Positions 1 through 61,916 of a DNA stretch of 64,000 nt are shown here, piece after piece (positions within the stretch are counted from its first letter, which is position 1; every line of letters begins with the position of its first letter). The notes below the pieces were generated by a model that was not told the DNA's origin, made no database searches, and saw only the letters and a program-made list of their open reading frames with translations. The stretch comes from Scenedesmus sp. PABB004 (Eukaryota): assembly GCA_014905635.1 (NCBI GenBank), contig JABVCE010000018.1, forward strand, positions 310,001-374,000, written 5' to 3'. Position numbers and translations under genes: made by a program.

Positions 1-3000
1 CCGGGCGCGGCTGGCCGGCCAGCGCGGCGCCCTCGGCCGGCGCGCGGAGCCTGCAGGGCATGTCCACGCTGCTCAGCGGCAGCCGCCGCCAGCGCCAGGT
101 GGCGGCAATCGCGAGCATGCAGCCCATGCCCGTCACGACGGCGCAGCGCGACGCGGCGGCGGCGGCCGCCGCCGCCGCCGCGGCCGCGGGCGGCGACGGC
201 CCGCGCGCCACGCCGCGGCCGCCCGTGTTTGAGCTGGAGGTGCTGCTCAGCCCCAGCCTGGAGGCTCTGGAGCTGGAGCCCGACCCGGGGCAGCTCCAGG
301 TGTGCGTGCGCACGCGCACGGCCAGCGCCGCGCGCCAGCGCCGCGCGCCAGCGCCTGCGGGGCGCCTGTGGGGGCGCAGCCCAGGGCGGCGGCGCGCACG
401 ACCGCGCCGCCCCGCGCGCTCGCGCGCCTCGTCGCAGGCCCAGATGGCGGCCGTGCTGCTGGGCTTCCGCTCGGCCGTGACGAGCGTGCCGCGGCTGTAC
501 ACGCGGCCGGCGCTGGCGGGCGTGCTGGGCGCAAAGCTGGAGGAGCTGCAGGAGGAGACGCCGCTCGCCGAGCTGGTCGTCGCGGGCGACTGCGAGGAGC
601 TGGTGCGCCGCGCTGCGGCGCCGGCCGCCGCCGCCTAGCCTGCCTGGGTGTGGCTTGGTCGCGCCGACGCTGCGCGCGCCGCCGCCGCCGCCGCCACCGG
701 CAGGCGTCCGCGACGAGGGCGGCGCTGGACGTCGCGCTGGCGCGCGCGGGCGCGCAGCGCACCGCCTACGCGCCCTTCCGCGACATGCTGTCCTTTGCGC
801 GCGGCCTCGACCTCGCCAGCCTCGCGCCGGCGTTCAAGGCTGCGAGCGGGTTCGCGGGCCTGGCTGCGGCGGCCGGCCGCGACGGCGGCGCGACGAGCAG
901 CGGAGGTGCGGGCCCGCCCCGGCCCCGGGCCACCTGCCGGGCCCTGCAGCTGCGCCTCGCCCCGCGGCCGCCGCCGCTCACCAGCGCGCGCTCGGCCGCG
1001 CGCAGACGGCGCGGCCGCCGCGGAGCCCAGCCTGGCGGGCCTGCCCAGCGCGGCGTCGCTGGCGCCGTCGGGGACCGAGTGCGACGCCGGCGGCGCCGTG
1101 TGCCTCGGGACGTTCCGCGCGCTACTCGAACGACTGGGCGCGCACCGGGCGGAGATCGAGAGCCTGCTGCCGGCGTGCGACGTCGACGTCGTGCGGCTCA
1201 ACGTGGCGGCGCTGCAGCGCGCGCTCGCGCCCTGGCCGGCCGGCCGCCTCGCAGAGCTGCACCGCGCGCTGCCCGCGCTCGCCGCCGGTGCGATCGCGCG
1301 AGCGGCGCTCGGCCGCCCCCTGCTCCCTACGCCACTGCTCAGCCGCTCGCGGCCGCGCCGCAGAGCTGCTGCGTGAGTACATGGACGCCCTGCATGCGGC
1401 GCAGTCGCGCCTCGCAGCCGCGCCCACGTGCGTGCAGGACTACGCCGACAAGACCACCTTCCTCGCGGCGTTCTTGCGCCAGCGCGGCGCCATGGAAGCC
1501 GCAGCCGCGCAGGTGCGACCTGTGCGCGGACGAGGCGCAGGCGGCCCAGCGTTGGCCGCCGCGCAGGGCGCAGCGCCGCCGCGCGCGAGCGCGAGCTCGG
1601 CGTCGCTGCGTGGCGCACACCGCGCGTGCCGCGCGTGCACCACGTGCTGCCCCGCTGCCGCCGCCGCCGCGTGGCGCAGGTCCACGCGCTGTACTCGCTG
1701 CTGGACGAGTGGCGCATCCCCGTGCCCGCCGTCGACCGCGCCGGGTACGCGAGCCTTGACAGCAGCTCCGCGGGGCTCTGGGCGCTCGCCGAGGAGGTGG
1801 AGGCGGGGCGCGACGAGGCGGTGGCCAAGTTCGCTGCGCAGCTCGATGCGGGTGCGCGGCGGCGGGGGCGGTGGGCGGGGGTGGGGAGCGCGGAGACCGT
1901 GGCCTCCGAGGGGAACCCGAGGGGGGAGCGCGTGCAGGAACGCCCGGCGACCGCGTACGCCGCGTGCGCAGGCGTGGAGTCGCTGGCCGCCGATGTGGCA
2001 GCGCTGCGCGGCGCGGCGCAGGCGGAGCTGCTGCTCAGCGTCGACGCGTCGCGCGGCGCGGTGCTGGACGAGCTGCAGCAGCTCGCCGCGGGCCTCGAGG
2101 CCCACGCGGCGGAGCTGGCGCGCATCAACGCGCGTCAGCGCCTCTTCAAGGTGCGCGGCGGGCGGCGCAGCTCACGCGCACGCACGCGCGCTCTGCGCGG
2201 CGCGCGGCGCCGCCTCGTCCCGCCGCCGCCCGGCCCTCGCACTCGCTGCCCGTCGACCCGCCGCTGCGCCACCGCGCCGCGCAGGTCGCAGAGAGCCGCA
2301 TCGAGGACCTGCCGGCGGCGCAGGAGGACGTGGAGCTCAAGCTGAGCCTGTGGACGGCGAGCGCCGAGTTTGACGACGCCGCTGCGGCCTGGCGCGCCGC
2401 GCGTTTTGGCGCGCTGGACCTCGCCGCCATGGAGGAGGCCGTGGCGAGGTACAACAGGCTCGCCACGCGGGTGGAGCGGGGCCTGCCGCCCTGCGCGCTC
2501 GTGTCCAAGCTGCGCGCCGCCGTGGACGAGCACCGCGCGCTGCTGCCGGTCGTCGCGGCGCTGCGCAACACCGCGCTCAAGGAGCGCCACTGGGCCAAGG
2601 CCTTTGCCGCACTCGGCGCCGAGCTGCCGCGCGACGAGACGTTCACGCTGCAGGCGCGCGGCACGGGGGCCGCTGCGGGGCGCCCCGCGCGAGCGCGCGG
2701 CGTCGCTCTCGCGCGCCGCCGATCCCTCCCGCCCGCCCCGCCGCCATGCAGGCGCTGCTCGACGCGCGCGTCGGCGCCGCCGCGGACGCGCTCGTCGCGG
2801 TCAGCGCCGAGGCGAGCCAGGAGGCGGCGCTGGAGGAGCTGCTCGCCCGCGTCGTGGCGCGGTGGGGCGGCATCGAGCTCGCGCTGCTGCCCTACAAGGA
2901 CACCAAGGACACCTACGTGCTGGGAGGGCTGGACGACCTCCAGGTGGGCGCTCTGGCGCCCTGCCGCCGCGCTGGGCCAGGCCGGCCCCAAAATGTGCCG

Positions 3001-59400: not shown

Positions 59401-61916
59401 GGCGGTGCGGGGCGCGGCGGGCCGTGCCCGGCCGCCGCCGAGGCCCGCACCGCGGCCCTCACGCACTGGTACACGTGCGCTGGCGCAGGCGTGTGGCGGG
59501 GCAGCACGGTCGCGATCAAGACGATGATCCTTCCCGCCAAGATGAGCGGCGCGGAGAAGCGGGAGCGCATGGCCATCATGGAGGCAGCGATCTCGAGCTC
59601 GATGTGCCACCCCAACATCGTGCAGACCTACACCTACACCATCAAGCCCGCCACCAGCGCGGCCGCCACGAGCGTGCGCAGCGTCGGGCCGGCGAGCCCG
59701 GCGCGCCCGCCGGCGGGCGAGCCGCCCCCGGGCGGCAGCGAGAGCGCGAGCCAGGGCTTCGACGTCGCCGGCGACAGCGCGGCGGTGCACAGCTTCGAGG
59801 TGGGCGTCGCGCGCCGCCGCCGCCGCCGCCGCCCCGTCGACTGGACTGCCTGCGCCGCCCGCCACCCCACGCGCCCGCCTCGCCCTCCCCTGCCCCCCCC
59901 CCACACGTGCGCACAGGTGAACATCGCCATGGAGTTCTGCGACTGGGGCTGCCTGCGCGACGCGCTAGACTGCGGAGCCTTCTACACACGTGCGCGCCGC
60001 CGTAGCCCGCGCCGCCCGCGCCGCCGCGCAGCCGCGCCCGCGCCACCGCGCCCGCACCGCCGCCCTCCCACCGCGGTGCCCCTCCCATCGCAGGCGACTG
60101 CACCGTCAACTACGCGGCCATCCTCGACACCGCCGCCGACGTGGCCAAGGCGATGCTGCACCTACACTGCAACCAGGCGCGCCGCGCCGCCGCGCCGCCG
60201 CGCCGCCGTGCCTGCCGGCCCCTAAACCGCGCCCCGCCGCGCCCCTTCTGCCGCCTAAACCGCGCCGCGCCCGCCTAAACCGCGCCGCGCAGGTGATCCA
60301 CAGCGACCTCAAGGTCCGCAACGTGCTGCTCAAGAGCGACGGCAGCTCCGAGCGCGGCTGCGTGGCCAAGGTCGCCGACTTTGGGCTCGCCGTGCGCATG
60401 GAGAACGCAGACACGCACGTCTCAGCCTTCCAGGCGCGCGGCGCCTGGGCTGCGCGGCGCGGCGCGGGGGCGCGGCGTGGCGCGCGCCGGCGTTGCCGCC
60501 GCGCGACGGCGGCGCGGCCCCGCTGCCGCCGCAGGGCACGATGAGCCACATGGCCCCGGAGTGCATGCTGCGGGGCCACATCTCCAAGGCGGCCGACGTG
60601 TACAGCTTCGGCATCACCCTCTGGGTGCGGCGCACGCCACGCACCGCGCGCCGCGACCACCGCGCGCCGCGACCGAGAGCCCCCCCCCCCACACACACAC
60701 ACACATGCACGCTCCCACACCCACGCCCCTCCTCGCCGCCGCCGCGGGCGCACCCGACCTCCCACCCTCCCTCCCTCCCTCCCGCCCGCCCGCCCGCGCG
60801 ACAGGAGCTCTACACCGGCGGCCACGCGTTCCACGGAATCCCCCGCGCACTGCTGGGGCACCAGGTGCGCGCCCGCGCGCGCGCGCCGCCGCCGCCGCGG
60901 CCGGCCGCGGCAGCCCCTGAGGGTGCCGCCGACGCACGGCGCACCGCCGCCCCGCCCGCCCCGCCCCCGCCCCGCCCGCGGCGGCCCGGCGGCGCAGGTC
61001 GCGGTGTGCGGGCTGCGGCCGGCGTTTCCCGACTTCACGCCGGGGGAGTTCCGGAGCCTCGCGGAGCGCTGCTGGGCGACCGAGCCCGACAAGCGGTGCG
61101 CGACGGCGGCCGCGCCGCCGCCGCCCGCCGCGCGGGGACCGGAGGCGGGCCCGCGCGCCGCGCCGGCCGGCCCGCCGGCGCCGCCGTGCTCGCGCTGCGG
61201 CCGGCTGACCGCTCGCCGGCCCGGGCCGCGCGCGCGCGCGCGCGCGCGCGCGCGCGCGCCGCGCCGCGCCGCGCAGGCCGAGCTTTGAGGAGATCCTGGC
61301 CACGCTGCAGCGCATGCGCGCGCGCCAGGGCGGGCGCACGGCGCCCATGCCCCGCGTCACGCCGCGCTCGCACCTGATGGCGCAGCGCGAGGCGGACGAG
61401 CTGGCCGCCGCGGAGCGCGGCGCGGGGGCCACCGGCGGCGACAGCACGGGTCAGATGGCGGCGCGGGTCGGCGCCGCGGAGGCGGCGGGCCTGGTGCAGC
61501 TGGCCTCGTTTTACGTCGACATGGGCAGCAGCGTCGGCCTGCACGGCGGCCCCTCGGCCTCGCCGGGCAGCCGCAGCAGCAGCACCAGCAACACGGCGCC
61601 GGCGCGGCGGACCAGCAGAACGGCGGCCGCCAGCGCGCGCCGCAGCAGCTGCCGCCCATCAGCGACGCCGGGGAGCTGGAGGAGGGCGGCGGCGCGGGCG
61701 GCGGCGGCGGCGGCGACATCGAAGCGCCGGCCGACGCGGGCGCGGGCGGCCCAGCCGCGCGCGCAGCCAGCTAGCGGCGCCGCGCGGCGCTGCCGCGCCG
61801 GCAGCTGCCGCTGCGAGGGGTCCCGGGCGCCGCTGTGCAGCTCGTGGGTGATCCGAATCTGCCCTCGACTGGTTGCATCCACTAGCGCACGCCGGCCTTT
61901 CCATGATGTGTTATGA
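56473..61916 (+). CDS. Two-TM receptor-like protein kinase: TM-CHASE-TM-TKL (Raf/MLK-like) kinase; ends uncertain, true stop may be 61774
   Basis: TM1 ILVVALLTTAVLATAGVLGVLAAA. CHASE-like LQLTPNGVVSTFYPLKGNEQALNHNLL, MQGPITLLQGWRGAVARVPVF, WWGFVSCIVRLD, VPNGEWSLRVAPQGGW. TM2 LATVVVISCLVGLLVLATLV. Kinase LGEGTFGKVYKG, VAIK, HPNIV, IHSDLKVRNVLL, KVADFGL, GTMSHMAPE, DVYSFG, RPSF. Confidence 0.88.

Follow-up and report, generated by a model that had tools for sequence, protein, structure and literature searches.

Can an alga take a sizeable part of its introns from GC donors and, if so, what allows it? The question was raised by a 64,000-nt stretch of Scenedesmus sp. PABB004 DNA (contig JABVCE010000018.1, positions 310,001 to 374,000, all of it referred to here as the window), in which an initial annotation had placed 15 GC-AG introns in six genes. 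GC-AG introns usually make up about 1% of introns and rely on strong exonic pairing with U1. The window is 79% G+C, and the assembly comprises 40 Mb in 80 contigs. Spliced alignments and a trained gene model confirmed the predicted GC donors as a real feature, larger genome-wide than the window had suggested, with an estimated share of about 18–22% of introns.

All junctions were called from protein homology or by the trained gene model. The profile-to-genome spliced aligner required an AG acceptor and allowed any of the 16 donor dinucleotides at equal cost; the profile for the window dynein was built from 36 dynein homologues. Support for a GC donor was expressed as the GT-only cost, which is the number of bits lost when the aligner was barred from that donor. 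The gene model was a self-trained ab initio finder that handled GA, GC, GG and GT donors equally. Tested on held-out genes, it found all 17 GC introns and 59 of 63 GT introns; 2 of 19 GC and 5 of 64 GT predictions fell outside the truth set.

In the dynein heavy-chain gene (plus strand), free-donor alignment gave 57 introns (47 GT, 9 GC and 1 GG), and exactly the eight GC sites claimed among about 57 introns were returned. The remaining GC (at 830) and the GG (at 617) were low-score noise in the poorly conserved N-terminus, with GT alternatives within 2 bits. Restriction to GT cost 14–79 bits at each of the eight sites. Six of these putative introns are in phase 0: 2654..2751 (CAG|GCGCG, 17.1 bits), 3239..3362 (CAG|GCGCG, 79.0 bits; GT in one paralogue), 5293..5385 in AAA1 (AAG|GCGGG, 23.8 bits), 7050..7170 (CAG|GCGCG, 18.6 bits), 15817..15956 (AAG|GCGCG, 15.8 bits) and 16212..16336 (CAG|GCACG, 15.0 bits; one paralogue with GC, another with GT). 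The other two are in phase 2: 3718..3837 (GAG|GCGCG, 13.9 bits), which splits FP^RFYF at a position held by eight paralogues (six GT, two GC), and 10425..10545 (CAG|GCACG, 23.2 bits).

In the amidase, casein kinase 1 (CK1) and DnaJ genes, exons abutted without gaps on protein structures (PDB chains) only if a GC donor was used. The aliphatic amidase intron (23297..23412, plus strand, acceptor 23412; CAG|GCACG, phase 2) separates exons that aligned to 4gyl at 226–262 and from 265 onward (junction 263|264|265), and the remainder was exactly the last exon residue plus the split Arg. The CK1 exons abut at 3sv0 144|145 across a predicted 145-nt intron (39381..39525, minus strand; CAG|GCGCG, phase 0), retention of which would cause a frameshift. 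The DnaJ gene (plus strand) has one such intron in the J-domain (43369..43491; CAG|GCGAG, phase 0; exons abutting at 1hdj 27|28), whose retention would add 41 residues ahead of HPD, and one in the C-domain (44578..44730; AAG|GCGCG, phase 0; 2q2g 57|58). For the TKL-type kinase (plus strand), the two phase-0 CAG|GCGCG introns at 60177..60292 and 60434..60534 carried GT-only costs of 54 and 25 bits.

Thus 14 of the 15 GC donors are backed by free-donor alignment or by exon continuity on PDB chains. The remaining one, in the GT49 glycosyltransferase (46354..46447, plus strand; AAG|GCGCG), is probable. The ab initio finder chose it with a margin of 12.9 bits under a flat prior, but the junction lies beyond the Pfam match and an in-frame GT occurs 12 nt upstream (46342). 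All 15 sites were picked by the ab initio model under a flat +2 prior, and the letters AG|GC stood at all 15. Taking alignment, ab initio prediction and sequence reading together, the six genes have 15 GC donors in about 103 introns (about 15%). The pattern described for the GT donors was also borne out: 87 of 113 began with GTGCG, and 73 of 113 lacked the upstream AG.

One further GC site was left out of the functional donors. The 3' part of a gene is duplicated in inverted orientation in the window (about 34930–36910, minus strand, and about 41136–43100, plus strand), with 94% identity over 2 kb. In the plus copy, 4 nt of an exon are deleted, and the donor at 41593 is ACG|GC, in place of ACG|GT in the minus copy. 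We interpreted the plus copy as probably broken.

To what extent does the window represent the genome? The assembly holds eleven dynein heavy-chain genes (11 loci). The ten outside the window gave 418 scored introns before filtering (239 GT, 114 GC, 65 other), 204 under a moderate filter (144 GT, 55 GC, 5 other) and 126 under a strict filter (94 GT, 32 GC, 0 other). With stricter filtering the noise vanished, and the GC share held near a quarter. In PRP8, an essential gene whose junctions are unambiguous, 28 introns were found (18 GT, 9 GC and 1 ambiguous), plus one AAG|GC where two pieces of the locus meet; with this site included, GC donors numbered 10 of 29. The confident homology-anchored introns, after removal of non-GT/GC and low-margin rows, were pooled to a set of 270, of which 71 had GC donors (26%, CI 21–32%). 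Kinases outside the window gave a noisier picture with the TKL profile, which did not align CK1: 44 GT, 16 GC and 37 other of 97 introns unfiltered, and 26 GT, 8 GC and 4 other of 38 after filtering.

Forty arbitrary regions of 10 kb (400 kb, 1% of the genome) were then taken as a sample independent of gene families. The ab initio finder predicted 759 introns in them, including 579 GT, 168 GC, 7 GG and 5 GA. With a margin of at least 6 bits, 471 GT and 101 GC remained (of 572); with a flat prior, the counts were 389 GT, 90 GC and 4 decoys. The GG and GA decoys stayed near 1%, and at least one GC donor was present in 34 of the 40 regions. The claim that the share lies far above 1% was thus upheld, at about 18–22% ab initio and 26% by homology. 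An account restricted to dyneins and low expression was ruled out by the GC donors in PRP8, CK1, DnaJ and the arbitrary regions.

The GC and GT introns were alike in median length (126–127 nt) and in their acceptors, which were CAG in 40 of 41 GC introns. The donors differed: the consensus was NNG|GTGCG for GT and MAG|GCGCG for GC, and 36 of 41 GC donors started with GCGCG. As had been claimed, the GC donors depended on the exonic AG, which preceded 66 of 71 GC donors vs 85 of 199 GT donors (p=1e-14). The commonest homology-anchored donors were AG|GCGCG (55), CG|GTGCG (49) and AG|GTGCG (49). Among sites with CAG at the exon end, 52 of 101 were GC.

The same dependence was seen where the protein sequence is indifferent. 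In phase-2 Arg codons, in which AG and CG are synonymous, GC followed AG in 16 of 32 cases and CG in 0 of 17 in the homology set; the ab initio set gave 17 of 33 and 0 of 18. Inside exons, only 66 of 541 Arg codons with a final purine were AGR. At a dynein position common to eight genes, GC occurred only in the copies with an exon ending in AG.

Computed U1 duplexes averaged −8.0 kcal/mol for AG|GT donors, −5.5 for GT donors without AG and −5.3 for GC donors. This suggested that a single loss, at −2 or at +2, reaches the same energy floor, since the last two values nearly coincide. Switching +2 to C in the non-AG donors brought the duplex to −3.2 kcal/mol. Donors of this double-loss type (without −2 A and without +2 T) were almost absent, at 5 of 270 introns.

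On these grounds the introns would be assigned to the U2 type. They have a predicted GC donor and AG acceptor at the exon boundary and a strong exonic MAG, as U2-type GC-AG introns do; an intronic consensus (+3A, +4A, +6T) stronger than in GT donors, another mark of that class, was not found. The intronic pairing scores were 5.07 for GC and 5.03 for GT donors. Only +3A and +5G leaned toward the stronger consensus in GC donors, with +3A in 8 of 71 GC vs 0 of 199 GT donors of the homology set. An assignment to U12-type (minor) introns was considered; the extended minor 5' consensus is absent from these donors with their GCGCG start. The search for U12 small nuclear RNA (snRNA) gave no match, in a run that had no positive-control match; the available part of PMC11347168 gives minor snRNAs as absent in Chlorophyta.

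Did the GC donors arrive with new introns? An introner-type transposon could have brought them in, and a green alga provides the precedent: in Micromonas pusilla CCMP1545, D-IE1 introns hold 79% of the GC donors (PMC4815162). Little of the kind was seen here. A partner at least 80% identical over 60% of the length existed for just 16 of the 1118 predicted introns (4 GC, 12 GT), and comparison among the 270 introns of the homology set gave low-complexity matches only. The GC share was the same, 26%, whether the position was shared with paralogues (22 of 86) or unique (40 of 154). Where a GC donor stood at a shared paralogous position, another paralogue had GT in 16 of 17 cases. By this comparison the GC donors appear to occupy old intron positions, and an introner origin is largely refuted; we consider it extremely improbable.

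Could the GC donors be errors of the assembly? GTGCG and GCGCG are one base apart and share a single dominant context, as a context-specific T>C consensus error would produce, and one exon-internal subset pointed that way: in Val columns, GCG was found in 9 of 33 cases after AG and before C vs 44 of 353 elsewhere. An error of this kind in the AG-GT context would also hit exons. When exon starts and more genes were added, however, Val>Ala was no commoner in AG-GTG-C (9 of 69) than elsewhere (142 of 1021). Exon starts in that context had 27 GTG and 0 GCG, and the opposite-strand motif showed no excess (His>Arg in 1 of 37 vs 17 of 347). About half of the CAG donors are GC, GC donors lie on both strands of the assembly (47 of 188 and 24 of 82), and further types (GCACG, GCAAG and GCGAG) are present. 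This explanation is very unlikely.

A different possibility, put forward in the initial annotation, was that the GC donors are recognised by a variant U1 or U6 snRNA with matching complementarity. Two U1 genes, identical to each other and starting with the canonical AUACUUACCUG, were all that came up both in an Rfam search, which scored 41 of 245 candidates, and in a DNA search based on the U1 body. The U1 5' end, U5 loop 1 and the U6 ACAGAGA box all match the Rfam consensus. Three kb downstream of the U6 gene lies a U6-like fragment (C77:376064-376120); it is truncated at the 5' end, without the ACAGAGA box, and lends no support to a variant U6. The proposal was not supported, and a variant snRNA, save perhaps for a very divergent copy, is hardly to be expected.

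Some further observations were made on these genes. The two identical U1 genes are inverted relative to each other and separated by 5.5 kb (C46:321585-327360). The U4 and U5 genes (L005:568-715, 1501-1609) are on the same strand of that contig, within 1 kb of each other. U1C occurs in two copies, at the end of contig C1 and the start of C61, which are identical over 650 nt, possibly an assembly overlap.

How, then, would a canonical spliceosome come to use so many GC donors? The reading we prefer, at a probability of roughly 0.7, is a normal spliceosome under a strong G/C fixation bias, with +2C surviving only if pairing of the exon end to U1 and to U5 loop 1 is complete. The introns would be ordinary U2-type introns served by the ordinary major spliceosome. 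With introns of about 85% G+C, the bias (mutation bias or biased gene conversion) would turn the +2 T of old donors to C. After exons with a terminal (C)AG the change may persist, sustained first by the pairing of −3 to +1 with U1 and then by that of the exon end with U5 loop 1. The C would be tolerated there because exon-end pairing keeps donor binding from falling below a floor of about −5.3 kcal/mol. Loss of the −2 A would be the alternative exit from AG|GT. Each loss would be tolerated singly, not jointly, and the GC junctions would be spliced in vivo. Either U1 or U5 may enforce the rule; U5 loop 1 has been linked to the AG-ended donor class (PMC11732430, from the part available).

The composition of the introns bears on the proposed drive. 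In intron bodies, GCG and GTG occurred 3036 and 512 times, so an unconstrained +2 would be about 86% C. From this, the implied scaled selection against +2C would be about 2.0 after AG and 4.9 without AG. Among AG donors of the ab initio set, the GC share climbed with intron GC (23 of 86, 27 of 86 and 38 of 88; p=0.002). The GC pressure invoked in the initial annotation was supported as the likely driver.

That annotation had also proposed a relaxed recognition of donors. When the GC-donor odds of plants or Chlorella were scaled by the C/T ratio of this genome, about 7–17% GC donors were predicted, a calculation that mixes genome-wide with intronic composition and takes its comparison values from annotation. 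Relaxation is thus mostly unnecessary; what stood of the proposal is a 1.3–3-fold residual against the 18–26% observed. The overall selection against GC donors implied for this alga was 2.7–3.2, vs 3.4 for Chlorella sorokiniana; the plant mean corresponded to 3.85, and Emiliania to 0.2.

GC pressure might be joined by a real relaxation of +2 proofreading, through a protein factor or a change in the U1 body, in which case the spliceosome would have partly lost +2 discrimination and uncompensated CAG|GCGCG would be fully efficient, with AG|GCGCG spliced constitutively even in essential genes, PRP8 with a third of its introns among them. The residual would fit this, as would the rank of AG|GCGCG as the commonest homology-anchored donor and the lack of compensation at +4 and +6. 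In the loop of U1 stem-loop I, 3 of 10 positions also depart from the Rfam consensus. On the other hand, PRP8 was ordinary, with 11 changes in 1443 near-invariant columns (13 in Tetradesmus obliquus, and 0–76 in the 32 reference proteins). METTL16, LUC7, U1C and SNRNP27K are all present in the genome, SNRNP27K with its conserved Met motif kept, and GG and GA donors are unused. We regard such a relaxation as unlikely, and still as the more serious of the competing explanations. If it were true, the genome would be a natural saturation experiment, in which exon-end pairing alone replaces a near-invariant +2 U.

The +4 position is C in 80–93% of donors, though METTL16 and SNRNP27K are retained, both of which have been tied to the +4A preference (PMC11732430, same part).

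Several points weigh against composition pressure on a normal spliceosome as the whole account. Five of the 71 GC donors lack the AG. Intronic compensation of the mammalian type is absent from GC donors (+4A in 6 of 71, +6T in 6 of 71), and in the ab initio set little of the +3A excess remained (2 of 90 GC vs 2 of 389 GT). The AG association in that set is not independent, as GT and GC donors were pooled to train its donor matrix. Within exons, AG-GCG-CG was avoided no more strongly than decoy codons, with the same odds ratios. In the homology set, the trend with intron GC fell short of significance (17 of 50, 25 of 50 and 24 of 51; p=0.12), and the scaling by composition, with its limits given above, stops at 7–17%.

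The similarity of two proteins to those of Tetradesmus obliquus suggested the affinity of the host. This species supplied the closest match to the window dynein out of 48 homologues tested, and its PRP8 is 95% identical to that of the present alga. The host is a member of Sphaeropleales, probably of the family Scenedesmaceae. Most genomes of that order are typically about 56% GC, according to the available part of PMC12571836. The window dynein itself is nearest the DHC7/DNAH6 class, with several otherwise conserved motifs altered. A metagenome scan yielded 21 loci, nearly all of them intronless or distant; the sole clearly intron-bearing GC-rich one (L026) carries two introns, both GT and neither at a position found in the window gene.

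Two other features of the window may be recorded. Another near-identical duplicated segment was seen by eye at about 53160–53900 and 55560–56200, upstream of two genes. A long CA and CACG microsatellite occupies 27850–28205, apparently within an intron of a minus-strand gene.

For gene prediction, the consequence is direct. A GT-only gene finder would mis-model about one-fifth of the introns of this genome, and such mis-modelling has occurred in Emiliania and Micromonas. If the sampled share holds, GC donors at old positions should number in the many thousands, in a genome with canonical snRNAs and a strict −2A/+2C epistasis. This would allow a well-powered test of how far base-composition pressure alone explains non-canonical splice sites. 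It would also make testable whether a +2 mismatch is rescued by pairing with U1 or with U5, a question that underlies human GT>GC variants.

For Chlorophyceae and Sphaeropleales, the literature outside subscription journals yielded no account of frequent GC donors, and the words 'splice' and 'intron' do not occur in a paper on Sphaeropleales genomes (PMC12571836). Abundant GC donors are known from other organisms, quoted here, except for Chlorellaceae and the plant mean, from excerpts of the sources.

In mammals, GC donors make up less than 1% of introns and are compensated by closer adherence to the consensus (PMC2490688); GT>GC switches are tolerated where U1 complementarity is strong (PMC2490688; bioRxiv 10.1101/479493). 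The switching at existing introns is similar here. Unlike in mammals, compensation comes essentially from the exon alone, the intron starting with GCGCG.

In Chlorellaceae, major non-canonical introns amount to 7.0% in Micractinium conductrix (8057 of 114347) and 5.7% in Chlorella sorokiniana (7090 of 124435; supplement to PMC6310983), the plant mean being 1.2%. These are likewise GC-rich, intron-rich green algae with a share raised over that mean. Their share is about a third of that found here, in annotation-based values pooled with AT-AC.

The pelagophytes Aureococcus and Pelagomonas have 14–17% GC-AG introns, credited to genome GC, vs 0.32% in a low-GC relative (bioRxiv 10.1101/2024.10.30.620910). 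They share with this alga a raised GC-AG share in GC-rich genomes; unlike it, they are stramenopiles and intron-poor (less than one intron per gene).

Emiliania huxleyi has 56–64% GC donors and about 4% GA at a genome GC of 65% (Feldmesser et al. 2014, PMC4028052). There too the GC donors go with canonical AG acceptors, and the authors credited the high genome GC. Its share is far above the compositional prediction, with implied selection near zero, whereas in the present alga GA and GG are unused and GT is still favoured.

Micromonas pusilla CCMP1545, also a green alga with abundant GC donors, has 25.6% GC donors with RNA-seq support; most lie in introners, and the figure for its regular introns is 9.7% (van Baren et al. 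2016, PMC4815162). An older gene catalogue gave 5.9%, ordinary gene finders having missed them (same source). The present alga differs in that introner families are lacking, regular old introns reach 18–26%, and it belongs to Chlorophyceae, not Mamiellophyceae. As a high-GC alga with more than 10% GC donors, it is a new clean example of a published phenomenon and not a new splicing system, and its distinguishing traits, freedom from introners and the sharp −2/+2 epistasis, are notable.

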